Shown: piece after piece, positions 10,365 through 60,121 of the stretch | Position numbering within the stretch: the stretch's first letter is position 1 | How the letters are laid out: the number at the start of each line of letters is the position of its first letter | Virus record (IMG/VR): IMGVR_UViG_3300018080_000105 | Coordinates: 1 to 64,000 of that record | Direction: 5' to 3' (one strand) | Length of the DNA stretch: 64,000 nt | DNA from: a virus | Translations under genes and position numbers: made by a program | The notes under the pieces: model-generated | The model's database searches: none | Told to the model about the DNA's origin: nothing | What the model saw: only the letters and a program-made list of their open reading frames with translations

Positions 10365-10837
10365 ATCGACTCTCGTGGGAATGTGTTAAACCGGAAAGAC
10401 CATTCACCAAGTTGCAACTCAGGGTTCGACACGTTCAACGACAACCCGACCAGAAATGATCGGTAAACCGTTGTTCCAAAACTTACCAGTACCGGGGCGG
10501 CTCTTGTTGCGATCCGATTCACACGGTATCGCTCCAGCACCTGTTCCATACCGCTCTCCCCGCCGCTACAAGGGTTCGCAAAACAGATCCCTGAGACAGT
10601 CAGCTCTCCGATGCGGTCACCGAAGATGTATGCGTAGATCGTCTCACTGACAGTGTGCAGGAACTGAACGTTTCCTTTTTCGTTGATACTGGCAGACGTA
10701 ACAATCGCATTGACGTTCTGAGAACCAATGCCCACGCCTTGCATCAGAACACGAAACGGCAGTACGCCACCGCCTCCGCCGTTCTGGCTAGTCACGCGAA
10801 CTACCGCGCCACGGTCATGTGCAAAGAAAGCTGGCAT
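10361..10837 (-). CDS. Tail tube initiator / tube-fold baseplate protein
   Basis: Directly after the tape measure; beta-rich (YIFGDRIGELTVSG...FLVGLSLNV...WSFRF) like gp48/gp54/gpU-type proteins. Confidence 0.5.
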   Translation of the reverse strand: MPAFFAHDRGAVVRVTSQNGGGGGVLPFRVLMQGVGIGSQNVNAIVTSASINEKGNVQFLHTVSETIYAYIFGDRIGELTVSGICFANPCSGGESGMEQVLERYRVNRIATRAAPVLVSFGTTVYRSFLVGLSLNVSNPELQLGEWSFRFNTFPRESI

Positions 10838-13800: not shown

Positions 13801-14478
13801 CTGGCCGGCGGACATGCCTCGAAGCGCATCAATGTTGGCATCAGGGCCATACAGGTTGTCGTAGATCTCCTGCGTGACGCGGCCAGACGAAGAACCGCTG
13901 TACCCGACCATTCCCGTTACCGGGTCCAGGCTGGTACGCATTGCATTGTGAATCTGCTGTGCGAACACCGTCGCGGAACCGCGGGAACCATGCAACCGAT
14001 CGACCATGTCCGGCCCGAGCAATTGCGTCATGACGGGCATGAACTGATTCATCATTTGGGACATACGGAAGTTCTGAGCTTCCTGTGCCTGCGTCAGCGG
14101 CTGCCCAGTCATCATCTGCTGCACGCCGCCGAGCATGTTCTGCATCGCAGCCATGTCGCGGTTAGCTGCGTCCTGCATCGCCGACTGTTGATCCATGAAG
14201 TGCCGGGTGGCCTCCATCTGGTCGTACAGATTCTGCTGCGGGAAGAACTGCCCTGCAAAACCGCCACCTGTGAAGCCAGACATAATTGCCGGCATCAACA
14301 TCTGCAGCATGCCCATGTTACCGCCGCCGAAGTTGAACGGGCCGGTAAACGTGTGACCTGGATCCATTGCAAACATAGGCGTGTGGCCGAGCATCCCTGA
14401 CGCCATACTCGGCGGCATTCCGCCGGAGGGCATTCCTGGCCACGTCGTTTGCGGGTATGGATACATAGGGTGCCTCAC
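10837..14478 (-). CDS. Tail tape measure protein (1213 aa)
   Basis: Longest tail ORF; Ala/Gly/Met/Gln-rich and helical; follows two chaperone-like ORFs; no Cys. Confidence 0.8.
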   Translation of the reverse strand: MRHPMYPYPQTTWPGMPSGGMPPSMASGMLGHTPMFAMDPGHTFTGPFNFGGGNMGMLQMLMPAIMSGFTGGGFAGQFFPQQNLYDQMEATRHFMDQQSAMQDAANRDMAAMQNMLGGVQQMMTGQPLTQAQEAQNFRMSQMMNQFMPVMTQLLGPDMVDRLHGSRGSATVFAQQIHNAMRTSLDPVTGMVGYSGSSSGRVTQEIYDNLYGPDANIDALRGMSAGQAGILAGELQARGMLGTPMGAMSFQEQRAALPQQLADDLVNRIAETLPEIRDVLAEGGTPSEAMLQQARDTVRDSHSQLIDPAQQMFAEDLEDMPGGQEIIRAADADRISSKLRNLSGAVKAMRDIFGDMGNPNAPMRELINGLEALTQGGLSTMNPGDLEMMVRRTQTIARQTGIGVGGMMGLMQGQFGAPLADALGLDRSYVVSGAQGAALYGAAAGSTLRMDIPVWGAMSQEQLTLADQQLRMHAAASPLANQMNAMLRMADTGMLNAAAGTETAAMLDAIRQGKDAYTFNGKSRSVAMAWTDLTQMMERDGGVSAAEAYTMLSDYNGNQEFGQKYNTTNVIRKIQAMEALDQSISPMLGHRYRGILAGDGADQTLISSGAVVNEADVAKLADDIGSQMGLEFLKMDEATVRDPEARRKALGEAYRKNMRAALQARMPDAGAAEIDALLDQVAPASEINAIGEATYATINAQASKNPIWRNAQGFYGLNNERVMEEAASRGRQASATAMRQSAMSHLGASGPIQRLMDAVQTADSDTDIGDLITDTLGGVEYKALMSASPDGPVAALLGLAQDNNRLDPRDEAEFAQIQRNTAIMKALVDGGPAAEAEAKKMRAARLDDGSFTYGSEELLELLDAAGSGQSVSAQVENMGAMVGATMTDEQIATMAGGQDLEGEDLDVWVEGAGARARSLMGDRASMEGLGRGGLALAQTLSQSTRELEGLAAEHGVTVSELLDGKAGRTARKKAQALYDKATDAGDEIAERREEAGGFLPGKGSNDQEAMTQSEKDALDADLRFRGMHGTRDARSEAALDQLSSVMSAEDAAMLQDPTSRKRLLEAMTEGDRGGAVARMGRNTEEMLRMGLSRGAFGDKTNLSQLTDDERASAYDLISDLDLTDEERADLERMQEGAGGMSGLGTDADGADLINDLLGRIGGIQGAAPEEKTEDQKMTITLKSGNLTLNEDGTATVEGEGEGIIDRMMSAVGIG

Positions 14479-31015: not shown

Positions 31016-32455
31016 CTACTTACCGTACGCCATCATCTCCTGAATGTGGCTTTTCAGATGGTTACGCAGCTGACGCTCCGTGGTGCCATCTTCGGCGGCC
31101 TTTTGCTCGTACTTGCCCTGGCGTTTGAAGTCCTGGACAGCCTGAGCGATTTTCATACCTTCGGTCATTTCCGGAGGAGCAGGTGCTCCACCTTCCATCG
31201 GAGGCATGTTGGCGTCCGGGCCGGCAAGACCAGCTGGAGCACCTTCCAGACCGCCACCTTCGAGAGGAGCTTCCGCGGGAGCACCGGCACCAGCCAGTTC
31301 TTCCAGAGGAATACCCAGTTCTTCCAGGGCAGCCACCAGCTGCATCAAAATCTCTTCCTGGGAAGCCCCGGCAAGTGGATCTCCACCGCCTTCGGCCAAC
31401 GGGTCACCGCCAGCCATGGGATCTTCACCGATAGCAGGAGCTGCTTCTCCGCCGCCTATCAGGCCGCCGAGATCACCACCGCCTCCGAGATCTTCCTCGC
31501 CGCCGCCCGCGGGGGCACCTTCTGCAGGAGCGGCCTCAGACTCCCCCGGCGTTTCTCCCCCGGCACCTTCAGCTTCGCTGGCGCCCGAAGTTACATCACC
31601 GGCTTCGTCATGGTCTTCACCGTCAGCAGCGTCAGCAGCCTGCTTGTTGAAGCCAGTCAGGTAGTTGCCGAGAAGCTCAGCATCCAGACGGGCATCTTCG
31701 AGCACGGCAGCAATCTCGTTGCCAACCAATTCCTGAGCAGCTTGCTTTTCGATGCCGAGCTGAGCCGCGAGCTGGTAACCAGCCGCCAGATCAGCGTCGA
31801 CTTCTTCGTTGCCACCTTCAGCAACAGCAGCCGCAGCTTTTTCAATCAACTGAGAAGTCTCAGTGATCTCGTTGGTGTCGGCAGCAGGAGCAGCGTCAGC
31901 CGCTTCCTTGGTTGCAGCTGGTGCGGGCTGTTCGGTCAGTTGATTTCCCTGACCGGTTGCCAGGTCCGCGAGGATCGAGTTTGCCAGCTTCGTATGAACT
32001 GACAAAGAATCCTGCAGACTCAGACTGGCATACTTGTGCCCGTCAAGCGAGTCGTTGTCGGTGCGAGCCGGGTGAGATGATCCAGGATCATCTTTGCCAC
32101 CCTTGTAGTCGTCCTCTGTCCCAGGGTCTTCCCCGGTGGCCGACTGGTTCGTGCCGATGTTCAGCTGGACATCGTCCTGCTGGCCAGGCTTAGCATCGGA
32201 AGCCTGATTGACTCCCGGAGCGCCCTGGTCTTTGTTGACATCGGCGGTGTGTTCGGATCCGCGAGAACCTTCCGACGCTTCCTGGCCGCGGTTGTCCACG
32301 TCCTTGGTCGCGTGAGTGGTTGCTCCCTGGTATCCACCGGGATCATCCGGCGTTGGGGTTTCTGCTGCTTTCTCAGCAGCAGCTTTTTCCTGGCCGTCGA
32401 TCGGCTGAACGAGTTTGTTCAGAGAATCAAACAGGCTTTGGGTCTGTGTACTCAT
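31016..32455 (-). CDS. Prohead scaffold/core protein (479 aa, acidic, low complexity)
   Basis: Between protease and capsid genes; largely disordered; at least nine K-x-A motifs. Confidence 0.7.
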   Translation of the reverse strand: MSTQTQSLFDSLNKLVQPIDGQEKAAAEKAAETPTPDDPGGYQGATTHATKDVDNRGQEASEGSRGSEHTADVNKDQGAPGVNQASDAKPGQQDDVQLNIGTNQSATGEDPGTEDDYKGGKDDPGSSHPARTDNDSLDGHKYASLSLQDSLSVHTKLANSILADLATGQGNQLTEQPAPAATKEAADAAPAADTNEITETSQLIEKAAAAVAEGGNEEVDADLAAGYQLAAQLGIEKQAAQELVGNEIAAVLEDARLDAELLGNYLTGFNKQAADAADGEDHDEAGDVTSGASEAEGAGGETPGESEAAPAEGAPAGGGEEDLGGGGDLGGLIGGGEAAPAIGEDPMAGGDPLAEGGGDPLAGASQEEILMQLVAALEELGIPLEELAGAGAPAEAPLEGGGLEGAPAGLAGPDANMPPMEGGAPAPPEMTEGMKIAQAVQDFKRQGKYEQKAAEDGTTERQLRNHLKSHIQEMMAYGK

Positions 32456-37371: not shown

Positions 37372-37794
37372 TTATCCGTTCAATGCCGACGGTTCAATCA
37401 ACAGGCTGAGGCCGTAGGTTTCCGTCCCAGAACCTCCACTGTTGATACGCATCCACAGCCGCCGTACAGGGTTTGTCGGCGTGCCGTCTCTATTGATGTA
37501 AGGGTAGTCTACCGCCGCCCGGTACGCCCCGCTCGTAATGGACACTTGTCCATTCGTAATCGAGTGCGCTTCCGGGTCACCGCCTTCCGTGGCAGAATCG
37601 GCAGACGAGCCAGCTGTCGCCATCGCCGCTACTTCGGAATCATAGATCTCGAAGTTGCCGGCGTCGGTGCCAGAGAGCTGTTTCAAATTGATCTGTTTGA
37701 TCGTCCCACGATGCGGCACATCAAGTCGCACGATCTCTTCCTGTCCAGCCTCGACAGAAAACTGAACAGGGCCATAACCCCATTGGTTACTCAT
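37372..37794 (-). CDS. Small beta-rich putative virion protein (~140 aa; start moved to MSNQW)
   Basis: ATG overlaps the HNH stop; jelly-roll-like composition with a SSADS loop. Confidence 0.6.
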   Translation of the reverse strand: MSNQWGYGPVQFSVEAGQEEIVRLDVPHRGTIKQINLKQLSGTDAGNFEIYDSEVAAMATAGSSADSATEGGDPEAHSITNGQVSITSGAYRAAVDYPYINRDGTPTNPVRRLWMRINSGGSGTETYGLSLLIEPSALNG

Positions 37795-38518
37795 GGTCGG
37801 TTCCCCAAAAGATGTTGAATTCGTCAGCGGCCTGCGCGATCTTGATAGCCATCTCAGGCGGGAGTTCAGAAAGGTCTTTGGCGCCCTTCTGCGAGTTGCA
37901 GACACGGCACAATGTAACAGCGTTGCCTGGTCGAAGGCCGTGCCCCTTGGACAACGGCTTTACGTGGTCAGTACACAGACTACGCTGACTGTTACAGTTC
38001 ACGCAGGCCGGCTGCGACTCCCGGAGAGCCTGCTCCATTTCAAGAGTCCACGCGGCATCCAACTGCTGTTTCCTTTCCATCCTCTCGCGGACTTTCATAC
38101 GAGCATACGCAGGCGTCCTTGACTGTCCGTGCGTGCTATTAACCGCACTAGCCCGGCTCCGCTGATAGCACCCGCAGGACTGTGTGTGCCCGTTGCGGAG
38201 CTTGGCAGCCATCACGGCAATCTCACGACCACAGTCACAAAGACATGGCCAGAAATTATTTCCAGGAGCAGGCCGGCGAAGAATCATCAGCCGACCGTAA
38301 CGAGCACCTACTACGAGACGCGATGGCAAGTTGTCCAAGTGCTCTCTCAGAACACAACCACAAGACGTGATCTTGCCCTGCTGGAGGTCCCCAGACCTGA
38401 TCGACTTCTCATTACCGCAGGTACAAACGCATAACCAATACACGCCCTTCCGCGAGGTGTCTCGCTGAAGGACGGTCAGCCGTCCATATCTTCGTCCTGT
38501 GCGGTCAATGAGTTTCAT
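37787..38518 (-). mobile_element. Free-standing HNH homing endonuclease with duplicated N-terminal DNA-binding repeat
   Basis: Two GxRYGRLxx...WxCxCxCG...SCGC repeats; HNH core CVNC...TDHVKPLSKG...NAVTLCRVCNSQK. Confidence 0.88.
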
Positions 38519-41043: not shown

Positions 41044-42939
41044 CTACGGGGTCGTTTTGTTAGTGTCAAGATCCTTCCAGCCCTGGGTTGCTCCATGCTC
41101 CCCAAAGCCAGCTCCGTGGGCCAGGGCCGGCACATAGCTGGTCCCGCCCTCGTCCGATACAGCACCTCGTCGGGCGCCTTCCAAAAGACTGTTTTTCTGG
41201 TAACTACCCAACATCCTGGTCATCCAGTCCGGGTCATGTGCCGCATTCGACATTCCCCGAATCATTTCCGGCTGAAACGGAGGAGGCTCGGTATGTGCGT
41301 AAATCGACCGAACTCCGTGTTTCTGCAGATGTTTTACCATCGAAGGCTGGATCTTGGTACCCACGGAATAATGTAGGACGGGTCGTTCGAGATATTTTCC
41401 TGCTGCCTGGTTCGGTGTAATGACCGCGTGGCCCTCACGCGGTTTCCACTGTCGCTCCAGTAATTGGTAAGGAACCACATCATCCTGGACCCAGTCACCC
41501 ATCTCTTCGGTGAGCCTGACATGGTTGATCAGGCCCCGAGAAAGCAGCTCGATATTACGTCGGTGACCACGTGTTCCCATACCGTCAAGCGTGTCGCGGA
41601 ATGCCTTCACAAAGTACCGTCGACCTTCTCCGACGCCTTTATGCTTTACGACTTCGGCCGGGTTGGGGATTCCTTCGGAGATAACATCTCCGGCTTCGAC
41701 CGTGTCACCCTTTTTGACTTTGAGCTCGTAGCCGTGACCAACATAGTGGTCTTCGTTCCCAATGTGGACGTAGTGTCCGCCCTGCGGAGCTTCTCGCACA
41801 GAGTGCACAGTCCCGTCCAACTGAGCATGTGCCGCACCCGCGGCGAATTTCTTAGGGACTTGCACCAGCTGGTTGATGAACTGGAAACCTGAGATGGCAC
41901 CCGCCCCTGCTCCCGCCACGCCCCCAGAATGCTTTGAGGAAATTTGGGCCTGCGTGATCGGTTCCGCGAGTGCCTGGGCCGCGGCAATACCAACATAGTC
42001 ACCGATTGGCGACAATCCTCCACGTTCGCGATATCCCAAATCACGGGCATAAACTCCGCCGTCCTGCGGCCCGCCCACGGTCGGACTGCGAACAAGTATT
42101 TCATCAATGCCATCAGCTTCCAGCTCTTTCAAAATCTTCGGTGTCAGGACCGTATTGCGTTTGTACCCGCCGATCGGGTGCGCCAGCAGTGAACCAGCTG
42201 TATCTGAGTCGTTCGTATTTACCGGCAAACCGCGTGGCGTAGATTCGTCGTAGGGATCGTCATCATCGTCTGACGTAACCAGCAGGCGATGAGTTGCCTG
42301 CACGAGCTGCTTTGCCAGGAATCCGGCATCCTGTGTCGCACTCTTCAAGTCCTGAATCCCTTTCCTCGCACCGAACGCCCCGGCGAAATACTCATAGGGC
42401 TTCAGTCCCATGGAATAACTGCGAAGCACAGGAATCGGCAATGCGTTGCCGCGGTGGTCGGTGTACAGGAGGTCAGCTCCGCGAAGAGAATTCAGATTTA
42501 CGCTGTTACCCCGCGAACCAGACTGTACCTGCATTGCAAGCGGGTTGCCTTCGTCCTTGGATTCCTGCAGGACATCTTTGTGCAGCTGTCCCTGATATTT
42601 CTGCACAGCGAGCAAGACTGCGGTGTCCTTTTGTTCGTCAGACATGTTGGACGAATAGATCTTGTCCAGTTCCTTCTGCATCTTCATCCGCATCTGCCGC
42701 CCAGCCAGTGACTGTCGCAGAGATTTCAATCCAAATGAATAGCCACCCTCGGAGAACGAAGCATCCCGCCCAATGTCAGACAGGCGTTTGGCGACTTCGC
42801 GATATTTATCCGGGTGTTTATCGGCTACTTCCTGGAGCAAAGCACGGATGCCTTTCTTGTCCAGTACCCGGTCGTGGTCGACCAAGTCTTCTGGCAAGAC
42901 ACTGTTGATCCAGAGTTGTCCAAGAGTCGTTTCCAGCAT
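41044..42939 (-). CDS. rpoC: Two-barrel RNA polymerase, beta' C-terminal subunit (bridge helix, trigger loop)
   Basis: ETTLGQ (TTxGR); bridge helix GARKGIQDLKSATQDAGFLAKQLV; trigger loop AAAQALAEPITQAQISSKHSGG; C-terminal LLEGARRGAVSD. Confidence 0.93.
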   Translation of the reverse strand: MLETTLGQLWINSVLPEDLVDHDRVLDKKGIRALLQEVADKHPDKYREVAKRLSDIGRDASFSEGGYSFGLKSLRQSLAGRQMRMKMQKELDKIYSSNMSDEQKDTAVLLAVQKYQGQLHKDVLQESKDEGNPLAMQVQSGSRGNSVNLNSLRGADLLYTDHRGNALPIPVLRSYSMGLKPYEYFAGAFGARKGIQDLKSATQDAGFLAKQLVQATHRLLVTSDDDDDPYDESTPRGLPVNTNDSDTAGSLLAHPIGGYKRNTVLTPKILKELEADGIDEILVRSPTVGGPQDGGVYARDLGYRERGGLSPIGDYVGIAAAQALAEPITQAQISSKHSGGVAGAGAGAISGFQFINQLVQVPKKFAAGAAHAQLDGTVHSVREAPQGGHYVHIGNEDHYVGHGYELKVKKGDTVEAGDVISEGIPNPAEVVKHKGVGEGRRYFVKAFRDTLDGMGTRGHRRNIELLSRGLINHVRLTEEMGDWVQDDVVPYQLLERQWKPREGHAVITPNQAAGKYLERPVLHYSVGTKIQPSMVKHLQKHGVRSIYAHTEPPPFQPEMIRGMSNAAHDPDWMTRMLGSYQKNSLLEGARRGAVSDEGGTSYVPALAHGAGFGEHGATQGWKDLDTNKTTP

Positions 42940-42944
42940 TCGTA

Positions 42945-43196
42945 TCAGCCAGATTTGATCTGAGGTTGCCCCGGGGCATTAACGTCGATGACTGCGACCG
43001 TCTTATCGATACCAAGGTTACGCAGTACCTCGTTGAACTGTCGCTGCGTAGATTCCTGTGCAGTCTCTGCGATGATCAACTCATCTCCAAGTTCTGCGGC
43101 GACGGCGATCGGATTGTCGAACTTATCAAGAACAACGACCCGAGTGACTTCTTTGGTTGTGAAGTCGCCCAGGCCATTGTGAAACATGATCTTCAT
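42945..43196 (-). CDS. Small hypothetical protein inside the beta' split (83 aa)
   Basis: TGATG-coupled to the upstream gene. Confidence 0.65.
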   Translation of the reverse strand: MKIMFHNGLGDFTTKEVTRVVVLDKFDNPIAVAAELGDELIIAETAQESTQRQFNEVLRNLGIDKTVAVIDVNAPGQPQIKSG

Positions 43197-43879
43197 CAGA
43201 CCTGCGTCCTCTGCCGCATAATTGCCGCCACAGCCGCAGCCCCGGTCTCGGGGTCGTAGTTGTTGAGAACATCACGCACAGTCAACTGTGCTGCCTTCTC
43301 GCCTCCGCCCCCGGCCAAGCCGGCCTGCATCGGGTTAATATCTGGAATCGGTCCACCGCCGTCATCCGCTGGAGCCATTGCAGCTCCCGGATCCTGCGGC
43401 CCGCCAGGCACTGCCGCTTCCGCGACAGGTGTCGGCGAGCCTGGAGGTGTGATCAGGGCACCCGGATCGAGCTGAATGCCCTGTGCGTTCATAATAGCCG
43501 TCAATTGTTGCTGCAGATTGTACAACCTGAAGTCCAACATCTGCATCATTTGCTCGGGCTTCATTTTTGGCGGGGCTGCTCCAGCACCGCCGGCGGCAGC
43601 TGCCGCCGGGTCGGCTGGAGGAGCGGCACCAGCTGCCATCGCTGGGTCCATCGCACCACCGACCATAGCTGGATCAACAGGAGGCGCCGCTCCGGGCATT
43701 GCTCCAGCCATTGCCGGGTCCATCGGGGGCATGCCGCCTGCAGCCGCCATAGCCGGGTCCATCGGGGCGCCGGCGGGCGCTGCAGGAACGACTGCAATCT
43801 TTTCCATTGAAGGACCGCCTTGATCCTTCCACACACGATGCTGCGCGAGTTCAAGAAGAGCAGGGTTGTAACCGGTCAT
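43196..43879 (-). CDS. Pro/Ala/Met-rich low-complexity protein inside the beta' split (227 aa)
   Basis: PMDPAMA-type repeats bracketed by MEKIAV and GEKAAQ. Confidence 0.7.
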   Translation of the reverse strand: MTGYNPALLELAQHRVWKDQGGPSMEKIAVVPAAPAGAPMDPAMAAAGGMPPMDPAMAGAMPGAAPPVDPAMVGGAMDPAMAAGAAPPADPAAAAAGGAGAAPPKMKPEQMMQMLDFRLYNLQQQLTAIMNAQGIQLDPGALITPPGSPTPVAEAAVPGGPQDPGAAMAPADDGGGPIPDINPMQAGLAGGGGEKAAQLTVRDVLNNYDPETGAAAVAAIMRQRTQV

Positions 43880-44487
43880 CAGTTGATCTCCGAATCAGAT
43901 TGGCACGGGCATACGCCGTCATTCATCTTCTTGCCGAAATTGCAATTTGCGCACAACGTCTGCAGAGTATCTGGGAAACCATTCTGAATAGCCCAACGAT
44001 ACAAGTTCGTGGGACCGATTTCCTTCCGGTGAAGATACCCGTCATCGTTCACATGGTCAATTTGTAAGAAATACTCGCGAGTTTCGCCACAGCAGACGCA
44101 TTTCCGTCCGTAGTGATCAAAGACTTGTGACTTCTGCCGCTGATACCGCTCAACCTTCTTGGCCTTGCAGCCCAAGCAGTAAACTCCCGTCTCTACCGGA
44201 GTAGTACAGGTCGGACACAGGCCGGCTTCTCTCCAGGCTGCTCTCCGTTCGTTACTGTTCCGCTGCTGGCTCTTGGCACAGACGGCGCATCTTACACGCC
44301 CAGCTCGGGGTGAGCGAACCCCGCAGTTGACACATTTCCCCGAATTCTTCCGCCGTTCTCGCCGGTCCCTGGATTTCGCCTTGGCGATCTCCGCACAGGC
44401 AGGGCACAGAGCCTTGTCGGTCGGAGTCTCGCACTCAGTGCACTGACCCGCAGCACGACGCCGCCTGTATTGCATGAGGGAAGCCAT
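43879..44487 (-). mobile_element. HNH endonuclease with multiple CxxC zinc fingers
   Basis: CTEC, CPAC, CVNC, CAVC, CPTC, CLGC; HNH core CVCC...LQIDHVNDDG...LQTLCANCN; single-base overlaps with both neighbours. Confidence 0.85.
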
Positions 44488-47400
44488 TATTTCTCCATGA
44501 TCTTGACCCGCCGACCGACGCCGATCTTGCCCTGTTTGTAGGCTTTGACCGCATCCTGGACAGTGGCGAAAGTGGCGGGGGCGTTCTTCTTGTCCTGCTG
44601 GGCCGAGGCTTCGTAGAGGCCTCCGATATATTCTTGGGAAGGTAAAAAATGTACGCCAAAAGAAGCTGCGCTAAACAAATTCCTGGATGGCAACATTTTC
44701 TGCAGCGCCTCTTCCTTCGCGTCGTCGTCCAGCGGGACGTGATACTGCATGGCGTCCCCGTCGAAATCTGCACCAAATCCGCCCACCACGAGAGGACTAA
44801 TCTTCAAAACGGTGCCTTTCACCAGCCGTGGACGGGCTGCCATGACACCATACCGGTGCAACGTGGGAGCCCGGTTGATCACCACCACGCCACTTTCCAT
44901 CTCGTCCATCATGGCTTTTCGAGCTGTCGGGGTCTTATCTTCAACAGCCCGAGCAGCATCCACACGACTCATACCGCGTCGCACCATCCGGCGAATCATC
45001 GTCGGGCGATAGATCTCCCAGGCTGTCTCTTCCGGAATACCCACTTGATCCATATCGAGGTCAGGGTCCGGGGCAATCACTGAACGACCAACCATGTCTG
45101 TAGAGGAACCCAGCAAACGACGCTGAACCGTCCCGGTCTTTGGGGACGATCCAAAGATGTGTTTCAGAATTCCTTTGACCTTCCGCTCCTGATTCTTTGG
45201 GTGCGTCGGATCACCGAGACCTGTCACGGCTTTGAACGCCTCGTATGTTGCGAGACGTTCATCACCAATATCCTCTTCGTCAAGCTGTTCAGACAACTGC
45301 TTCAGATTGTTGTTTGCATCCCACAGCTCTTTGTAGAGATAGTTCGGGTCCGCAACGAGTGGTAACTTCTTCGCACCCATCGTCGACACCGGACGAAACG
45401 CCGGAGGCAAAACAGGGGCGCGCTTCAGCACCCAGTCTCGCGGATGGATGTTGAGACGCTTTGCACTCTTCAGATATCCGAGCCGGCGGACCGCTTTGTC
45501 TCGGTGAGTCTTCTTCCCGCTGGCGATCTCAGCTCGTGCCCTCGCAATCTCCTTGTCGAGTTCGAGCCCGTTGAGTGCGGCGGCAACAGCGCCCGGACCG
45601 ACACGTCCGTTGAGCTTCTCGCGGCCCGCCAGAATGTCGTTGAACTTGTTCTTTGTCAGCCCCAGCAGCCGCCTGATCGGTTCCTCCATCACAGGGTTCG
45701 GCATGGGTTCCGCAAGTTTGATCGCTGCCCATCGGTTTCCTCCTCCATCGGCGGTTTGGTGCCCGCCAGTCAGCGACTGGTCAAAGAGTCCGCCTTTTGA
45801 CGGCTCCATCGTCTTCCAGTCTACGGTTTCAACATTCTTCAATTCGCGTTCGCCAGCCAGTTCATCAACGTCCTTGTCGGTGAGTGCCATGATATGCACT
45901 TTGTCACCGTTGCGGACCACGTTGATCCCTGACGCTTTCAGACTGTTCACGAACTTACGGTACACATGCGGCACCTCCGGAGTCGGAGGTTTGAACCCGC
46001 TCATATACTGTGCCCAGTAATCCGGATTGGCCTGGCCCCGGATGATGCTGCCGTCTCGAACCACCGATGTAGCTCCGTGTGACAGCAGTGCGTTTGTTTC
46101 CAACATCCCGACACGTTTAGCGCCAGTCTTCCCGCCCTTCGCCGGCGTACGCTCGGCGGTGTATGAGCCAATGCCGCGACCCTGCGCTTTGGAATCAGCT
46201 GTGTGGTGCAGCTTCATCACCCAACGATTACCGGTGAAGATGTCATTCACCTTCCGGTCGTTGGTTGGGTCGATGATTGTCTCCGTGTCTTCCAACCCGG
46301 CTTTCTGAAGTTCGCGTAACGCGAACTCGATCATGTCTTCCTCGTCCTGGAAGTCTGGAACCTTGAATGGCTCACCACGTTTGGCCGCGATCTTTCCAAG
46401 AGCAGCTTCCACAATCTGAGCAGGATTGGTACGGCTGATGACACCCAACGGGTTAAGCAACAGATCGTAGGCTTTGCCATCCTGGTCGGTCGGCATTTGA
46501 TCGTCGGGAATGACGTGGCTGATGATCCCTTTGTCGCCATACCGTCCGCTCAGCTTGTCGCCGACCTTCATTGGGATAGATGCCTTCACAACCACCGACG
46601 CACCCTTCGGCGTCTGGACTACATCAATCACTTCGCCATCGTAGTCGTGGTCCCACTTTAGACTGACGTCCTGAAAGCTGGGCTTCCCACCTTTCAGCAG
46701 ACTCTTCTTGTTTCGTTCCTTTTCACGCGCCACCAGGATCAGTGGGTCGCCTTCTGAGACTTTAGTACCGGGCTTTACCACACCTTCATCGTCGAATCGC
46801 TCCAGAATGTCGCGCCCGTACTTCGACGGAAAGATCGACTGGAACGATTTACGTCCGCGGTGGTCACTCTTCTCCCAGTCATGCGAGTTCTGGTAAGTGT
46901 GCTGCGACGACATTCGCTTCGCGAACGATGCACTGATGACATTGGCATCTTCAAAGTTAAGGCCACCCCATGGAACGTACGCCACACGGGCATTCATTCC
47001 GAGAGCAGTAGTACCCTGTTCGTCTGTGAAGTTAGAGCGCGCCAGCAACTGTCCAGCCTCAAACTGATCACCAGGTTGGACAGTGGCTGTCTGATGCAAG
47101 CTGGTCTTCCGATTGAACGGGAAGTTGTTGTACAGAGGTAGCTCTGCCTTTTTCCCGTCGGCGTAGCGAACCTTGATCCCGTCCGGCGACACCGCTTCAA
47201 CCACCCCTGGCTGGTCAGCGTGAAGGGCGCCCATCTTGTCGGCATACTCTTGCTCGAAGCTGCGACCCTCAACGCCGGGCATCCCTGATTGCACGAGAGG
47301 AGCCTCGGCACCATCCAACGGCATAGCCTGCGTAAGCATTCGTGCGGCCATCACCGCTCGCTGCCCCTTCACCATGGATTTCATGGGGATCATGTTGCCG

Positions 47401-48914
47401 AGAGGACTGAACGTGTCCTCCATATCGGGCACCTCGAAGTCAACCTGTGACTTGTTGACGGTGCGGACCTTGCCGCGAACCAGCGCTCGCACAAAGTCCT
47501 GATCCTTATTCATCTCATTCGGGAACGCTACCACAGAGTCCGCAAAGTCTCGCGGCGATTTGTACACGGTCTGACCGTCCAGTGTCTTCACTGGCGTGTA
47601 CAGTTGTCCGTCTTCCCCTTTGACCGCTCCACGGGCTAATCGCACATCCACGCCAACCTTGCCGCTCTCCGGGGTCCGGAGGAAGTCGATGAAGCCGAAC
47701 TGAGATGGCTGAACCGCGCGGCTCTCGTCCGGGATAGCGTCCAGCGACGTGATACCGCCCTCGCCCATCCGCGTTACACGAGACTGCTGGTCGTACACCT
47801 CGGCCGGGTTGATCTCTTCCAGCGGAGATGCCAGCCCGGAACTCATGAGCGTCGACATCACCGTGTCCTGGTAGGGACTGGTCGCCAAGTTGTCGAGATT
47901 CTTCCGCGGCGTTGCCTTCCACAGCATCTGCCGGGCCACGTTCTTAGCTCGCGACAACCGATCAGCAAACAGGTCTTCGGGACCGTACAGCTTCTGATAA
48001 GCCAACGCGTCACGGTCATCCTCTTCGTCTTCGTCTTTCGCCACACGGATCAGTTTACGGGTGACTTCCAACAGCGTGTCCGCATTGACGTTCTTTACCC
48101 CACGGCCCAGTGTTCGCTGCGTCACCTCCGGATCCAGTTCCATCTCTTCAAACGACTTCACAACAGCAGCCACCTGCCCGAGATCGTCGGCAGTGCCGTT
48201 GCGGTGCAACTTTTTGTACAGCTTACCGATCGCACCTTTGTCGAGCTTCTTCATATTCTCGGCGGTCAGCTCGTTACCCCAGGCCTCTCGCAGCTGCCGG
48301 TCTTCGACACCCATAGCCTTCAATAACGGCATCAGCGGAATACGAGCCTGTCCCATCTGAATGCGGAACACACCGGTCGCGGGGTCGAGGTACAGACGAT
48401 GGCCGTACCCTTTGGAGACATTGACGTGGCTCTCGATCTCGCCGTTGCTCTTCCGGCGAGTGAAGATGCCAGGCCGCAGCCGGGCCTGGTGAGCCATTGT
48501 GTACTCGTTACCGTTCAAAATGAACGTGCCGCGCTGGGTCATGTACGGGACCTTCGCCAGCTGCATGCTACGGCGGGAGACCTCGTTGCCTTCCAGATCT
48601 CGCAGCACGGCATCACCAGTCAGCTTCCTCGCGAGAGTCCCGCGGGCCAGCAAGGCCTTCTTCTGCGCAGCAATGTCGTAGCTGTCCGGCCCGGCCCATC
48701 GCGGGTTTTCGATCGCCAACTGATACTGAGAGTTGCTGACTGGCTCAAACGACTTCGCTGCGGCCAACACGTTGTCAAAAATCATTTGACGCGTACGGGC
48801 GGCGTCTCCGAACCGCCGAAAGTTCCCCGGCCCAACCGCCGGAGCGGGAGCCACTGGAGTTGTCGGCGTCGGTGCGGGTTCTTGATCGTCCAGAATACTG
48901 GGATCAGGCCGCAT
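44487..48914 (-). CDS. rpoB: Two-barrel RNA polymerase: full beta fused to beta' N-terminal half including the catalytic DFDGD
   Basis: Beta motifs YMTQRGTFILNG, RTPESGKVG, NFEDA, GDKLSGRYGDKG, LLNPLGVISRTN, KLHH...GAKRVGMLE; beta' motifs GGLFD, PVLPPAFRP, GRSVI, NRAPTLHR, GADFDGDAM, PSQEYIGGLY. Confidence 0.96.
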   Translation of the reverse strand: MRPDPSILDDQEPAPTPTTPVAPAPAVGPGNFRRFGDAARTRQMIFDNVLAAAKSFEPVSNSQYQLAIENPRWAGPDSYDIAAQKKALLARGTLARKLTGDAVLRDLEGNEVSRRSMQLAKVPYMTQRGTFILNGNEYTMAHQARLRPGIFTRRKSNGEIESHVNVSKGYGHRLYLDPATGVFRIQMGQARIPLMPLLKAMGVEDRQLREAWGNELTAENMKKLDKGAIGKLYKKLHRNGTADDLGQVAAVVKSFEEMELDPEVTQRTLGRGVKNVNADTLLEVTRKLIRVAKDEDEEDDRDALAYQKLYGPEDLFADRLSRAKNVARQMLWKATPRKNLDNLATSPYQDTVMSTLMSSGLASPLEEINPAEVYDQQSRVTRMGEGGITSLDAIPDESRAVQPSQFGFIDFLRTPESGKVGVDVRLARGAVKGEDGQLYTPVKTLDGQTVYKSPRDFADSVVAFPNEMNKDQDFVRALVRGKVRTVNKSQVDFEVPDMEDTFSPLGNMIPMKSMVKGQRAVMAARMLTQAMPLDGAEAPLVQSGMPGVEGRSFEQEYADKMGALHADQPGVVEAVSPDGIKVRYADGKKAELPLYNNFPFNRKTSLHQTATVQPGDQFEAGQLLARSNFTDEQGTTALGMNARVAYVPWGGLNFEDANVISASFAKRMSSQHTYQNSHDWEKSDHRGRKSFQSIFPSKYGRDILERFDDEGVVKPGTKVSEGDPLILVAREKERNKKSLLKGGKPSFQDVSLKWDHDYDGEVIDVVQTPKGASVVVKASIPMKVGDKLSGRYGDKGIISHVIPDDQMPTDQDGKAYDLLLNPLGVISRTNPAQIVEAALGKIAAKRGEPFKVPDFQDEEDMIEFALRELQKAGLEDTETIIDPTNDRKVNDIFTGNRWVMKLHHTADSKAQGRGIGSYTAERTPAKGGKTGAKRVGMLETNALLSHGATSVVRDGSIIRGQANPDYWAQYMSGFKPPTPEVPHVYRKFVNSLKASGINVVRNGDKVHIMALTDKDVDELAGERELKNVETVDWKTMEPSKGGLFDQSLTGGHQTADGGGNRWAAIKLAEPMPNPVMEEPIRRLLGLTKNKFNDILAGREKLNGRVGPGAVAAALNGLELDKEIARARAEIASGKKTHRDKAVRRLGYLKSAKRLNIHPRDWVLKRAPVLPPAFRPVSTMGAKKLPLVADPNYLYKELWDANNNLKQLSEQLDEEDIGDERLATYEAFKAVTGLGDPTHPKNQERKVKGILKHIFGSSPKTGTVQRRLLGSSTDMVGRSVIAPDPDLDMDQVGIPEETAWEIYRPTMIRRMVRRGMSRVDAARAVEDKTPTARKAMMDEMESGVVVINRAPTLHRYGVMAARPRLVKGTVLKISPLVVGGFGADFDGDAMQYHVPLDDDAKEEALQKMLPSRNLFSAASFGVHFLPSQEYIGGLYEASAQQDKKNAPATFATVQDAVKAYKQGKIGVGRRVKIMEK

Positions 48915-52540: not shown

Positions 52541-52906
52541 TCAGGCTGGCGGTGTTTCCGGCAGCCTTCCATTAGCTCTGAGAATGTCCTGGGCTTGCTT
52601 CTCTACGGCGCTTTTGAAGTCGTCGTCGAGAGCGGCAGCCGCAATCATCTCTGATGCCCACCGCGAATGCCATAGCATCTGCTCTTTGTAGTACGGATCG
52701 GCCGCGATTTCCTCCGGAACCGGAACCGTAGGCCCAGGCAGGACGTATCCTTTCGCTACGCGATCTCGATGGTCAGCCAACAATTTGAACAGCTCCTCAT
52801 TGGCTTGGGCCTGGTTGGCTTGCATCTGCTCAATCCCCTTTTGAAGGATTGAGGAGATTGGAGACGGCTGCGGAGGCTGCTGATCTGATCCAACTGGGTC
52901 AGTCAT
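52541..52906 (-). CDS. Hypothetical helical protein (~121 aa; start moved to MTDPVG)
   Basis: Coupled to the upstream gene. Confidence 0.6.
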   Translation of the reverse strand: MTDPVGSDQQPPQPSPISSILQKGIEQMQANQAQANEELFKLLADHRDRVAKGYVLPGPTVPVPEEIAADPYYKEQMLWHSRWASEMIAAAALDDDFKSAVEKQAQDILRANGRLPETPPA

Positions 52907-53579
52907 CTTCGGATTCCGTGAGAGTTTCTGCGATCTGCTGCATGACCTGTTCACGCAACGCAGGGTTTTTCTGGAATGCTTCCAGTGTCTTTTCACCCAG
53001 CGGTGTTCTGGGAGCACTCAGACCTTCCGAACGAAGAAGGCTCAGCGTGTCGGCGTCGGCTGCCACGGGGTCCGCAGGAGCAACCACGGCAGGAGGTTGC
53101 GGGGCTGGTGGTTCGTCGCCATCCGGCCACAGCGACCACAGGGCGGCGACGGCCGCCAACCCTGGCACGCCAGCCAGGCTGCCGATCGTAGCCAGCTTCC
53201 CGAGAGACAGATCAGTCTTCCCGGCAGCAACTTTCTCAACTTGCTGGTTTTGATGCTCCATCGCTACCTGGCGTTCGATCTGCGAGTTGGTCTCTTTCTG
53301 ACGTAGCAAGCCGACCAGGTCCTGCACAGTTGTGTCGACCTGCTCGGTTTCAACTTCATCATCCAGAATGACCCGCTCCCCAGCGCTTGGCAGCCCGTGC
53401 CGGATAGCTGACATCTGCTTAATCATGTGGTCAGCGTCTAATTGCGTCTGCAGAAACGCTCGTCGTTCTTTGGGGGTCATCTGAGACAGCAGGTTAGTTC
53501 GCCGAGTACGTGTTGTAAGCGGTACAACAGCTCCGGAACCGGGAGTTGCTGCGGGGGCCTGATCAGACATAGTGATCAC
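52899..53579 (-). CDS. Membrane-anchored hypothetical protein (226 aa)
   Basis: One TM segment LATIGSLAGVPGLAAVAALWSLW followed by a Pro-rich linker. Confidence 0.65.
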   Translation of the reverse strand: MITMSDQAPAATPGSGAVVPLTTRTRRTNLLSQMTPKERRAFLQTQLDADHMIKQMSAIRHGLPSAGERVILDDEVETEQVDTTVQDLVGLLRQKETNSQIERQVAMEHQNQQVEKVAAGKTDLSLGKLATIGSLAGVPGLAAVAALWSLWPDGDEPPAPQPPAVVAPADPVAADADTLSLLRSEGLSAPRTPLGEKTLEAFQKNPALREQVMQQIAETLTESEDD

Positions 53580-54618: not shown

Positions 54619-56391
54619 TCAGAATTCGTCGCGAACAATCTTCTGGAGAATCTTGGAAACTCCGTCAGTGCCTTTGACGATCTCTGGTTCCCCCGTACCT
54701 CCAACGGGGTAGACGACGATCTGCGGCAATTCTTTGAACCGAAGTCCCTTGCCTTTCACGTCGTACAGGACGATGGCTGGATACTTGGCCTTGGCAGCTT
54801 CGTACTCACCCTTCATTCTGTTCCAATGGTCAGCGGAAGTATCCGTTACAAGTACCATGTGGTCAACGCCAGTGCTCTGCTGGAGCGCCCAGAGGACAGA
54901 AACGTCAACGTAGGCGGGACTGATGTAACGCCCTGATTCGACTTTGAGCGTGACGGCCGCCTCTGATGGATTATCCCGAAGCTCCCGTACCAATTCCAAA
55001 ATCTTAACCTGGTTTTCCTGAAGCCCCTGAATGCCCTGTAGCAACGATTCATGCTCACCGCTGGGTGCCGATAGCTTCCCAGACAACTCGTCCTGTTTAT
55101 CCGCCAGTCCCTGGATCAGTTTGATTAACTGCTCGTGATCCCTTCTCAACGAGTGCTGGTTCTCGATAAGCACGTTGATCGGATCCAATAGGCCAGGAGC
55201 CGGTGTCGGATTGTTGGCCGGCGGGCCTGTCGGCGTGTCCGGGTTGCCAGAAGGCGGATTGCCTGATGGCGGGGTGTCCGGCACAGAATCCGGGACAGGT
55301 TCAGTAACAGGTTCCGAAGGAGGAACAACAACGGGCTGCTCACCACCCAAATCTTCCGTGGGATGCGGGAAAACTTGCGGAGGCGGCGACTGCGGGCGGC
55401 TTCGAGGCGGCTGCGGCGAAACAGGGCGACGTGGCTGCGCGCGAGGCTGAGGATAGTATGGGTAGCATGGTTGCGACGGATAACACGGCTGACAACTCGG
55501 GGATGATGGCGGACAACACCAGGCATACGTTTCACTGACCTTCGTTCCGAGGAACGTTGTGATCGTGCCGGCATAGGTCCCTATCGATCCAGAGGAGTCC
55601 CCGCCCCAGAACACACCAACCAGTTTTCCGTTCGTATCGAACATCGGGCCGCCACTGTCACCTCTACGAAGATGACCAGACGCCACCAGCAACTGATTGT
55701 TGCCGCTCGTCACAAACTGATGCGAAGGGTGTCCCGGAACAAACTTACCAGGCGAGTCCGCTTTGTAGCCGGCGGAAGTGTAACCTTGCAGCGCGCCAAA
55801 GTGTGCCCGGTAAATGTTGCGTGTCCCGCCGAAACCCGCCACGCCAATGTTAGGCTCTTTATCTGGATCAATGATCTTCGTATTGATCTCCATCGGGACA
55901 GTGCCTTTAGGAGCATACACTGCCAACGCACACAAATCATTTTCCCAGTCAAGCGCCAGCACCTTGGCACTTGACCGCATGCCTTTGAACTCTGCGACCG
56001 GTTTCTGCGATTCGGCACATTGAATATCACCGCACTCAAAGATGTGAGCGCACGTCAGAATGACCGCGGTGACCCGTCCATCTTTTTCCGGACGAGTGGC
56101 GATAACCGTCCCAGTGCCCAGCGAACGAGTCCTGGTCATGTGCAGCCGCACGACCGAACTACGAACGCGATTGTACAGCGCAACCGCTTCTCTATCGCTC
56201 GCCTTCGGAGACCACACGGCACCGCCCGAAGCACGGTTACGCGCAACCTTGTAACTGCGCGTCGGGGAGTTCGGATCCTGTGGGACCCGAAACACATGAA
56301 ACCCTTCCGGATTGAACTTCACCGGGAGGGCGGCATAGGTCTGTGACACCAGCATGACCACTGCCACGAGAACGCTGAAAATCCGTTTCAT
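54619..56391 (-). CDS. Secreted trypsin-like serine protease with Pro-rich linker, coiled coil and C-terminal domain
   Basis: Signal peptide; catalytic triad ILTCAH, NDLCAL, GDSGGP. Confidence 0.88.
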   Translation of the reverse strand: MKRIFSVLVAVVMLVSQTYAALPVKFNPEGFHVFRVPQDPNSPTRSYKVARNRASGGAVWSPKASDREAVALYNRVRSSVVRLHMTRTRSLGTGTVIATRPEKDGRVTAVILTCAHIFECGDIQCAESQKPVAEFKGMRSSAKVLALDWENDLCALAVYAPKGTVPMEINTKIIDPDKEPNIGVAGFGGTRNIYRAHFGALQGYTSAGYKADSPGKFVPGHPSHQFVTSGNNQLLVASGHLRRGDSGGPMFDTNGKLVGVFWGGDSSGSIGTYAGTITTFLGTKVSETYAWCCPPSSPSCQPCYPSQPCYPYYPQPRAQPRRPVSPQPPRSRPQSPPPQVFPHPTEDLGGEQPVVVPPSEPVTEPVPDSVPDTPPSGNPPSGNPDTPTGPPANNPTPAPGLLDPINVLIENQHSLRRDHEQLIKLIQGLADKQDELSGKLSAPSGEHESLLQGIQGLQENQVKILELVRELRDNPSEAAVTLKVESGRYISPAYVDVSVLWALQQSTGVDHMVLVTDTSADHWNRMKGEYEAAKAKYPAIVLYDVKGKGLRFKELPQIVVYPVGGTGEPEIVKGTDGVSKILQKIVRDEF

Positions 56392-58456: not shown

Positions 58457-60121
58457 TCACCTTAGTCCAAGAACAGAGCCAGTTACACCGCGAATCATAC
58501 CGCCCCACAATCCCATGTTCTGCAACTTCTTCTGGGCTTGTGGTTTGAGACCGCCAAGAACTCCAAGAACGCCACCCGCGATATGTGCCGTCGCCAAATC
58601 CACGCCGGCTGTCGCCAACCCGCGAATGAAATGCCGCGGCGACAACATCGACGGATTACCATGTAGTTGCTGCACGCCGGTAACCAGTCCGGAAGCAGCC
58701 GCTGCGTGCATCGGTGGAGTGTGGCGACCAGCATCACCCCAAATTGCACGATTAAACGCGTCAACCGGGACAGACTGTAACGCTACCCCGCGACTGCCCG
58801 TGTACCCACTGGAGTTCACTGCGCGTTTAATTCGGTTGACACTTTTCTCAAACTGATCGGACGCTGTGAGTCCCAACGTGTCGAGGTAATCCAAAGCCTG
58901 CTGCTGCGCGCTGGCCTTGTAGTGATTCATATAATCAATTTCGCTCGGAGCGATGTTCTGCTGCGTGACCGGCTGCAGGAATGACTTCCGCCACTGCGGC
59001 TTCCCGGTCGCGTTCTGGTTCATCTGTGCATTAGCCAAGCCTTGTGGGACATGTAAAGCCGCGCCGCCAAGCCCGCCGAGTATCGCCAGGTTCCGTCGCA
59101 GTTTACCGCGTTCCAGGTACTCTTCTGGCAGCAACTGCTCAGCAAGCCAGCCACCGCCGTAACCCAGCCCGGCGCCCAGCAACCCAGACACGATGGAGTT
59201 GGACATTGCCGAAGGCCCACCGGTCAGCTTACCCGCCGCACGGTATGGCAACCCCAGGTACTCCAGCGCAGAGGCTTTCTTGACCATGATCCAATTATCA
59301 GAGTCAGACGGGCCAACCTCAGATTCGGCGATGACTTTGTCGACCCCGTCGATCGAGTTGACGGCTTTCTCCCACTGCTCATAAACCTCTCGGCCGTCAG
59401 AGTCACCAAGCACGATCCACGCCGTCTTGTTTTCCGGATGCCAGTAAACGTAACCGTAACCAGGCATAGCCGGCAGATCTTTAATCGCCGTCTTTAGGGC
59501 GTCCCGGATGGCAGCCGCGAGCTTTAAGCGTTGGGTGACAAGTGCCGGGACCTGTCGCCACAGCGACAGTTCGCCCTTTTTTTCGATGCGTTTGATAGTT
59601 TCATCAGCCACGGTTTTCCATGCCCTCCTGGCGTCTACTGCGCGGTCGTCGAGATAGAGGTCCGCTACAACTTTGTCTGAGGCATCTTCCGGCTGGTCTG
59701 GGTTCTCGTTGATATGGTCGAACGGAATATCGTGTTCTTCCAACCAGCTGCGAACCAGTTTTTTGTCACCACGCACCGTGTTAATGATGATCTGATAACC
59801 CTCGTCCCGAAACCGCTGCATACTCTTCTTGGCGCCCGGCCTCGGCTTCTCGATCTTCTTCGGATCGAACTTGTCGTACATCGAAGCTAGCGTGCCGTCG
59901 AGATCTACAGCCACTGTGGGGAGTCGGTCCGCACGCGACTTCCCCGCAGCGGACTTTCGTCGCCCATCCAACACAGCACTGAGGCCGTCCAGCGGCAGAG
60001 AGGCTTCGGGGGTTTGTATGATCGTGGATAGTCGCGACATTGCGTTTCCCATGACTCCATGGCCTCTTTGAACCACTTCCAGAAAGCCGCGATCGCTCGC
60101 CGCCTTTGTTTGCTTCTCCAC
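58457..60121 (-). CDS. HAD-phosphatase / glycine-zipper multidomain protein; true start probably further upstream
   Basis: HAD motifs VAVDLDGTL, IINTVR, K, LYLDDR; C-terminal Gly zippers; K-x-A linkers; no Cys. Confidence 0.8.
   Translation of the reverse strand: MEKQTKAASDRGFLEVVQRGHGVMGNAMSRLSTIIQTPEASLPLDGLSAVLDGRRKSAAGKSRADRLPTVAVDLDGTLASMYDKFDPKKIEKPRPGAKKSMQRFRDEGYQIIINTVRGDKKLVRSWLEEHDIPFDHINENPDQPEDASDKVVADLYLDDRAVDARRAWKTVADETIKRIEKKGELSLWRQVPALVTQRLKLAAAIRDALKTAIKDLPAMPGYGYVYWHPENKTAWIVLGDSDGREVYEQWEKAVNSIDGVDKVIAESEVGPSDSDNWIMVKKASALEYLGLPYRAAGKLTGGPSAMSNSIVSGLLGAGLGYGGGWLAEQLLPEEYLERGKLRRNLAILGGLGGAALHVPQGLANAQMNQNATGKPQWRKSFLQPVTQQNIAPSEIDYMNHYKASAQQQALDYLDTLGLTASDQFEKSVNRIKRAVNSSGYTGSRGVALQSVPVDAFNRAIWGDAGRHTPPMHAAAASGLVTGVQQLHGNPSMLSPRHFIRGLATAGVDLATAHIAGGVLGVLGGLKPQAQKKLQNMGLWGGMIRGVTGSVLGLR

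Follow-up and report, generated by a model that had tools for sequence, protein, structure and literature searches.

Why would a phage encode an RNA polymerase (RNAP) of the cellular, multisubunit type from which every cysteine has disappeared, including those that hold zinc in its cellular counterparts? The question is raised by two genes of the IMG/VR viral contig IMGVR_UViG_3300018080_000105, which comprises 184,021 bp and is estimated to be 89% complete, and the first 64 kb of which (64,000 nucleotides) are referred to here as the window. One gene (44487-48914, minus strand) encodes the beta subunit joined to the N-terminal half of beta' (1475 amino acids (aa), hereafter the fusion), and the other (41044-42939, minus strand) the C-terminal half of beta' with the bridge helix and the trigger loop (631 aa, hereafter beta'-C). 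Neither chain contains a cysteine, such that the count for the two together is 0 in 2106 residues. An initial annotation of the window had noticed some 2100 residues of RNAP without cysteine; our computed count confirms this, and counting across the homologues gave near-zero values as well. The phage itself is uncultured and has a genome of roughly 200 kb, and the polymerase proteins are also present on a 220.6-kb contig.

A bacterial-type catalytic core

Judged by their motifs, the two genes encode the whole catalytic core of a bacterial beta/beta'-type multisubunit RNAP, with the active-site motifs intact. The fusion scores 179 bits with the Pfam domain Rpb2_6 (cut-off 23.4) and 90 bits with Rpb1_2 (cut-off 25.3), and beta'-C scores 66 bits with Rpb1_5 (cut-off 28.5). 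In a search of the PDB, the nearest solved structures were bacterial beta (expectation value (E) 1e-67) and bacterial beta' (E 4e-54). The catalytic Mg-binding motif ADFDGD is found at 44754-44771 on the minus strand (fusion residues 1382-1387), with GADFDGD in place of NADFDGD, and the lysine motif of beta (GDK..GDKG) reads GDKLSGRYGDKG at fusion residues 785-796. The 631-aa chain aligns with residues 691-939 and 1195-1282 of Salmonella RpoC and has the bridge helix at residues 190-213 and the trigger loop, with its histidine, at 321-340; its AlphaFold2 model has a predicted local distance difference test score (pLDDT) of 76, and the top Foldseek matches of the model are bacterial beta' subunits (E 3.5e-25). 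The point at which beta' is split coincides with the cut between gamma and beta' in cyanobacteria.

A single set of polymerase genes is present, as no second set was found in the 184-kb contig at its estimated 89% completeness. The same contig gave no match to the alpha-subunit families PF01000 and PF01193 (controls 14/14), and the phage core may use the alpha subunit of its host. The enzyme thus shares with cellular RNAP, here Salmonella RpoB and RpoC, the domains, the catalytic motifs, the bridge helix, the trigger loop and the dependence on sigma. However, RpoB and RpoC together contain 22 cysteines, eight of which ligate two zinc ions, and the Salmonella enzyme needs alpha2 and omega, all of which are missing from the enzyme of the phage.

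Loss of both zinc sites

To our knowledge, the two zinc sites of beta' count among the near-universal structural elements of RNAPs of the cellular type. In an alignment with Salmonella RpoC, the N-terminal zinc ribbon, a stretch of ~40 residues (RpoC ~58-100) that holds the first site, Zn1, by C70, C72, C85 and C88, is cut to GGHQTADGGGNR (45732-45767, minus strand; fusion residues 1050-1061). This replacement is a glycine-rich loop of 12 residues without cysteine; in most homologues it measures 7 residues, the loop being five residues shorter in 71 of 97 homologues, with LTGGH(-----)GGNRW as the family consensus. At the second site, Zn2, all four ligands (C814, C888, C895 and C898 in E. coli numbering) are replaced and the site is shortened by 4 residues. 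The position of C814 falls into TSDDDDDPYD (42247-42276, minus strand; residues 222-231 of the 631-aa chain), and those of C888, C895 and C898 into RSPTVGGPQDGGVYARDLG (42034-42090, minus strand; residues 284-302). The latter motif is conserved in 96 homologues, the replacements at Zn1 and Zn2 both being conserved family-wide, and the former Zn2 domain is retained, with a pLDDT of 83-94 in the AlphaFold2 model. The initial annotation had described both sites as deleted. Both are indeed lost, and the Zn1 loop is as it had been read, but alignment and model indicate that deletion is the right word for Zn1 only, and that Zn2 is substituted within a domain that has been kept.

We found no paper in the literature that describes a loss of cysteine or zinc in this polymerase family. 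A 2026 review of jumbo phages presents phage multisubunit polymerases as lacking sigma homologues, and the clade to which the window belongs goes unmentioned there.

Cysteine is avoided in the protein, not in the DNA

Cysteine makes up 0.97% of residues in the open reading frames (ORFs) of the window, 1.52% in the whole 184-kb contig and 0.71% in 68 related loci. With these backgrounds, the probability of finding no cysteine in 2106 aa is 1e-9, 1e-14 and 3e-7, respectively. Furthermore, the cysteine triplets TGT and TGC (TGY) are common in the two wrong frames (61 + 59 and 29 + 28 occurrences in the two genes) and occur 0 times in frame, even though 391 codons of the two genes are a single substitution away from cysteine. 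Since TGY is abundant out of frame and missing in frame, the avoidance must act on the protein. An avoidance of the DNA motif as such was also considered as the cause, and is ruled out by the plentiful out-of-frame TGY.

The same figures bear on the possibility that cysteine is missing by compositional chance or as a side effect of base composition, with no selection involved. This has nothing to recommend it beyond the general rarity of cysteine in phage proteins, and we regard its probability as negligible: chance values of 1e-9 to 1e-14 apply to this genome alone, and the absence is conserved in about 340 homologues of three proteins over a GC content of 53-69%, while inteins inside the very same genes are rich in cysteine.

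A family-wide rule and its intein control

Among intein-free homologues, the 97 of the fusion (54-74% identical) contain 13 cysteines in 142,818 aa and the 96 of beta'-C contain 1 in 60,723 aa, or 14 in 203,541 residues for the pooled set of about 190. In the 68 related IMG/VR loci, the two polymerase proteins have 0.046% and 0.09% cysteine, as compared to the background of 0.71% and to 0.24-2.15% in their neighbours.

Inteins provide an internal control. They are inserted at ~13 sites in 47 homologues and carry 448 cysteines in 18,474 residues (2.43%), whereas the exteins of the same 47 proteins carry 9 in 49,449 (0.018%). The first residue of the intein is cysteine (serine in two cases), and the residue that follows the intein is always serine or threonine and never cysteine. 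With cysteine confined to the inteins and serine or threonine at the +1 position, the precursor evidently may contain cysteine, while the mature enzyme may not, and the intein result is therefore direct evidence of selection on the mature protein. Taken together, these counts indicate that the absence of cysteine is kept by purifying selection throughout the family.

The polymerase family is also an intein hot spot in its own right, as about one fifth of the homologues have one or two inteins, many of them with LAGLIDADG domains. Expressed as equivalent residues of the window's proteins, the insertion sites are ~161, 361, 397, 416, 603, 788 and 828 in the fusion and ~199, 208, 324, 333, 337 and 355 in the 631-aa chain.

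The sigma factor and a further candidate follow the same rule

The window encodes a sigma70-family factor (7148-7954, minus strand; 268 aa) that likewise has 0 cysteines, and that is a homologue of gp10 from Salmonella phage Arash (phmmer E 3e-13). Its gene lies 34 kb from those of the polymerase core. Pfam recognises Sigma70_r3 with 28.9 bits (cut-off 25.3) and region 4 with 19.6 bits, the latter being below the cut-off, and has no match to sigma region 2 in this ORF. A profile of the family aligns to structures of SigA, RpoD and RpoS over positions 72-248 (E 8e-13). In 150 diverse representatives of the sigma family, we counted 5 cysteines in 39,039 aa.

A locus search with the sigma protein gave one locus, and whole genomes of relatives were used instead for a comparison of orthogroups. 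This covered five genomes, namely the contig, Arash and three relatives with a GC content of 56-69%, two of which have terminal repeats. Of the 31 orthogroups common to all five, only sigma (0 cysteines in 790 residues), the fusion (2 in 5520) and beta'-C (6 in 4193) are depleted of cysteine, which accounts for 0.5-3.2% of residues in the portal, terminase, tail and replication proteins. We also asked whether virion proteins are generally poor in cysteine, and rejected this, as the portal, the tail proteins and an 818-aa structural neighbour of the polymerase have normal cysteine contents.

The contig has ten cysteine-free ORFs of at least 180 aa, eight of which lie between 7 and 60 kb. The largest of these is an ORF of 1213 aa (10837-14478, minus strand; 0 cysteines). 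It is found 3 kb from the sigma gene and has no Pfam match, the sole lead being a faint resemblance to tape-measure proteins that stays below the threshold. Its 36 homologues (28-52% identical) contain 1 cysteine in 47,120 aa, which makes the 1213-aa protein a candidate for a further member of the cysteine-free set. What we observe, in sum, is an identifiable polymerase with intact motifs that has no cysteine, and an absence that is conserved in the family and restricted to the polymerase, the sigma factor and the 1213-aa protein. The cysteine frequency in this set is 0.002-0.018%, as compared to a background of 0.7-1.5%. Being conserved and limited to few proteins, the depletion in the polymerase/sigma set is, by its sequence characteristics, of the kind described for the cysteine-suppressed ejection-protein sets of Schitoviridae.

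Cultured relatives and the content of their virions

Among cultured phages, Salmonella phage Arash (OQ632216) and the Vibrio phages D69, D148 and D181 come nearest, with polymerases that are ~30% identical to that of the window. The polymerases of the Arash/D69 type are partitioned in the same way into a beta-beta'N fusion and a beta'C chain (30% and 25-27% identical), the zinc ribbon is deleted alike, free cysteines are nearly gone, the sigma factor is cysteine-free and the structural module is again where the genes are located. There are differences as well. Arash gp216 and D69 0264, the counterparts of beta'-C, have exactly four cysteines each, and these are the Zn2 ligands, which the clade of the window has replaced; the fusions of Arash and D69 have 1 and 2 cysteines, as opposed to 0 in the window. 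Because the ribbon and nearly all free thiols are gone in Arash and D69 while Zn2 is kept, the loss of the ribbon and of free thiols must have come first, and the loss of Zn2 occurred only in the clade of the window. Furthermore, the portal gene adjoins the polymerase in Arash and D69, but the two are 76 kb apart in the contig studied here. Arash also has a second sigma factor, gp196, and a packaged helicase, gp217; the contig (89% complete) has no second sigma factor and no detectable homologue of gp196 or gp217.

In the published virion proteome of Arash, the fusion, gp206, ranks first in detection (128 unique peptides, 3516 spectra), and gp216 and the sigma factor gp10 are represented by 40 and 24 peptides, whereas likely contaminants such as ribonucleotide reductase and primase have 2-11 peptides (PMC10585845). 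As to the sigma-like genes of Arash, which are located at 120656-121693 and 11892-12596, gp10 (0 cysteines) is present in virions, while gp196 (3 cysteines) is outside the list of virion proteins. This pattern would fit a single core that is served by a packaged early sigma factor, gp10, and by a newly made later one, gp196.

Other phage polymerases

The initial annotation had pointed out that the virion RNAP of phage N4 is free of cysteine and had linked this to passage through the cell envelope. N4 gp50 does indeed have 0 cysteines in 3500 residues, and gp51 and gp52 have 0 in 644 and 0 in 150. In N4-like phages, cysteine suppression is a family-wide property of the ejection proteins, affects few co-delivered proteins and has been linked to passage through the periplasm (PMC11445570). 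Like the RNAP of the window, gp50 is a giant polymerase without cysteine, with the distinction that gp50 is an established virion enzyme, whereas for the window packaging is what we infer. The two enzymes are otherwise dissimilar, as gp50, a T7-like enzyme of one subunit, has no zinc sites that could be lost, whereas that of the window has a two-barrel bacterial-type core and a sigma70-family factor. In addition, N4 is a podovirus, with ejection proteins that extend across the periplasm, whereas Arash, the cultured member of the family, is a myovirus.

A second comparison is offered by the crAss-like phage phi14:2, where gp66 has 2 cysteines in 2180 residues, gp65 1 in 1421 and gp67 1 in 1797, which amounts to 4 in 5398. 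Here, a two-barrel polymerase (gp66) is strongly depleted of cysteine together with its large neighbours, its detection in virions being taken from the annotation of the record, which refers to tandem mass spectrometry. However, gp66 is a single chain without sigma factor and a relative of RNAi-type polymerases, and it is not homologous to beta/beta' at the level seen for the enzyme of the window.

Closer in architecture are the phiKZ-like and AR9-like phages, whose virion RNAPs (vRNAPs) are multisubunit enzymes that are packaged and injected and that transcribe the early genes (PMC7598289, PMC5312081). Pfam had recovered only some of their subunits, and we located them by iterative phmmer searches combined with the record annotation. 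In phiKZ, the vRNAP has 16 cysteines in 2614 residues (0.61%), the non-virion RNAP (nvRNAP) 33 in 2850 (1.16%) and the proteome 1.01%. In AR9, the vRNAP pieces have 3 in 1549, a partial count from exon-sized ORFs, as introns interrupt the genes, which are joined from 3 and 6 pieces, and the nvRNAP has 16 in 2174 (0.74%). Like the RNAP of the window, these vRNAPs are beta/beta'-like and without alpha, and they are poorer in cysteine than their own non-virion paralogues. They differ in consisting of 4-5 polypeptides that are very divergent from cellular enzymes, in having no sigma homologue and in being accompanied by a second, non-virion set, whereas the RNAP of the window closely resembles that of bacteria (E 1e-67), is the sole set found in its contig, has a sigma70-family partner and is free of cysteine. 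The initial annotation had named equally cysteine-free non-packaged phage RNAPs as an observation that would speak against packaging; the values of 1.16% and 0.74% for the two nvRNAPs show that such enzymes do contain cysteine. Delivered polymerases are thus repeatedly poor in cysteine and non-delivered ones are not, and the effect is graded.

Probable packaging and delivery of a holoenzyme

We consider it probable that the holoenzyme is packaged in the virion and delivered into the host, and regard this as the best reading of the data. The core would partner with the phage-encoded sigma70-family factor, and selection has stripped every cysteine from mature core and sigma, including the eight that hold zinc in cellular enzymes. 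The holoenzyme would be made late, packed into the head and held for long periods outside cells; it would then pass through the tail along with the DNA and, once in the host, transcribe the earliest phage genes, needing neither host polymerase nor freshly made protein. Free thiols and zinc clusters with four cysteines would be liabilities on this route, being prone to oxidation during storage and, in the periplasm, to cross-linking by the Dsb system at entry, and a zinc cluster would in addition hinder unfolding and refolding during delivery. That the holoenzyme is a passenger of the virion is the most likely reason why cysteine and zinc have been purged. For this phage, packaging, injection and the reason for the avoidance of cysteine are what we infer, while presence in the virion of Arash is known from the literature. 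Whether the complete holoenzyme, dependent on sigma70 and devoid of alpha, zinc and thiols, is carried in the capsid and delivered, such that avoidance of cysteine marks delivered cargo, is a wider claim, and one that we hold to be evenly balanced.

The gene context is compatible with this reading up to a point. The polymerase genes are translationally coupled to their neighbours and lie within the structural module, next to homologues of the Arash virion proteins gp218 and gp222 and of the capsid protein gp226; the capsid gene is 11 kb away from them and the portal gene 76 kb. Hence, of the head-cargo placement proposed in the initial annotation, the location in a structural module holds, but a head-cargo nature of the surrounding genes is not established, and most of the neighbours have ordinary cysteine contents. 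In the rifampicin pocket of beta (fusion residues ~350-380, in the region 46,5xx-47,9xx of the window), four positions are substituted (Q513->S, F514->P, H526->Q and S531->T, in E. coli numbering), such that rifampicin probably does not inhibit the phage enzyme. These substitutions fit early transcription that is independent of host RNAP, though they are no test of it.

Several points weigh against packaging and delivery. Virion detection is limited to the Arash homologue, which is only ~30% identical and lies outside the close clade of the window, and in Arash, the sole member with virion data, Zn2 still has all four of its cysteines. The Arash particles had been purified by means of a sucrose gradient; ribonucleotide reductase and a kinase were among the 116 proteins that they yielded, and the authors allow for carry-over of abundant proteins and enzymes (PMC10585845). 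The injected phiKZ vRNAP carries its 16 cysteines; together with the Zn2 cysteines of Arash, this means that zero cysteine is neither needed for injection nor proof of it, and that the complete loss in the window must have a further cause. The nvRNAP of AR9 is also without the zinc ribbon, while that of phiKZ keeps it (PMC7618050), and the loss of Zn1 is therefore not specific to packaged enzymes. The sequence context gives no sign of late expression of the polymerase either. Nearly all genes of the 184-kb contig are on the minus strand; a consensus scan found fewer sigma70-like promoters near the polymerase genes than in shuffled sequences and no convincing intergenic terminator, and tests for k-mer enrichment (ten-fold tests) in 80-90 upstream regions of two genomes found no shared motif. 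Finally, the capsid, portal and tail proteins of the same particle keep their cysteines, and oxidation during storage alone is therefore insufficient as an explanation.

This last point touches on the question whether cysteine and zinc were purged for the shelf life of a packaged holoenzyme, and not for its passage. Such an enzyme has to work after weeks in oxygenated water, and oxidisable thiols or Zn-thiolate clusters would be more than it could bear. Capsid and tail proteins need only stay assembled, and it is the enzymatic passengers, polymerase and sigma, that are cysteine-free; the beta'-C chains of Arash and D69 keep only four metal-bound cysteines, the free thiols of the core being gone save one or two; and contractile tails, Arash being a myovirus, would shield the cargo from the periplasm. 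On the other hand, the virion polymerases of phiKZ and AR9 retain free cysteines, and the cysteine-free 1213-aa protein has no enzymatic signature. Sequence alone cannot separate storage from passage, and we regard shelf life as a possible, though rather unlikely, sole reason.

Alternatively, the enzyme might not be packaged at all, but act inside the cell, where it would resist stress directed at thiols or zinc, such as the oxidative defence of the host, a shortage of zinc or a chemistry by which the phage takes over and puts the zinc-containing host polymerase out of action. The possible contamination of virion preparations by abundant enzymes that the Arash authors point out (PMC10585845) and the ribbon-less nvRNAP of AR9 (PMC7618050) would be in line with this, and neither a packaging signal nor a late promoter was identified for the polymerase of the window. 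We nevertheless find it improbable, as replication, recombination and nucleotide-metabolism proteins share the cytoplasm and yet have 0.9-3.2% cysteine, as gp206 tops the Arash virion proteome with its 128 unique peptides as opposed to 2-11 for likely contaminants, and as the same depletion is seen in three unrelated polymerases that are known to be injected.

Neighbouring genes

Three ORFs separate the two polymerase genes. Adjoining the fusion is a cysteine-rich ORF (43879-44487, minus strand; 202 aa, 19 cysteines), the translation of which reads as CxxC zinc-ribbon repeats followed by an HNH-like motif. It has no Pfam or PHROG match and no orthologue in the 68 related loci, and is probably a homing endonuclease located at the beta' split. 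A second cysteine-rich ORF of the HNH endonuclease type (37787-38518, minus strand; 15 cysteines) lies within the structural/polymerase block and is likewise without orthologue in the 68 loci, as expected for mobile homing genes. The other two ORFs between the polymerase genes are a low-complexity ORF rich in Ala, Pro, Met and Gly (43196-43879, minus strand; 227 aa, 0 cysteines), whose 37 orthologues have 0.12% cysteine and in 26 cases none, and a small ORF of 83 aa (42945-43196, minus strand; 0 cysteines).

Further cysteine-free ORFs on the minus strand of the window encode 479 aa (31016-32455; orthologues moderately depleted, with 0.36% cysteine), 226 aa (52899-53579) and 554 aa (58457-60121), the last with an N-terminal domain that resembles phosphatases of the HAD/PNKP type (Pfam 28.7 bits; phrog_1238). 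An ORF of 590 aa (54619-56391, minus strand) contains a domain of the trypsin-like serine proteases (Pfam Trypsin_2, 48.5 bits) and is a candidate for a head-maturation or other virion protease.

Implications

The existence of a large natural clade without both zinc sites, without any cysteine and without alpha means that these are dispensable for a cellular-type RNAP. The clade also offers a scaffold naturally free of cysteine, on which labels could be placed site-specifically and folding without metal could be studied. Avoidance of cysteine in N4-like ejection proteins was already known. If packaging is true, this would be a virion-carried enzyme that depends on sigma70, unlike the sigma-less enzymes of the phiKZ type. 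The recurrence of cysteine avoidance in N4-like proteins, in the family described here and in gp66, and in weaker form in the vRNAPs of AR9 and phiKZ, suggests that delivered proteins are subject to a physical constraint of a general kind. If such a constraint exists, conserved avoidance of cysteine, with inteins and neighbouring genes as controls, would be a predictor of delivered cargo that needs nothing but sequence and that could be applied to uncultured phages, where in the present case it would single out the polymerase, the sigma factor and the 1213-aa protein.

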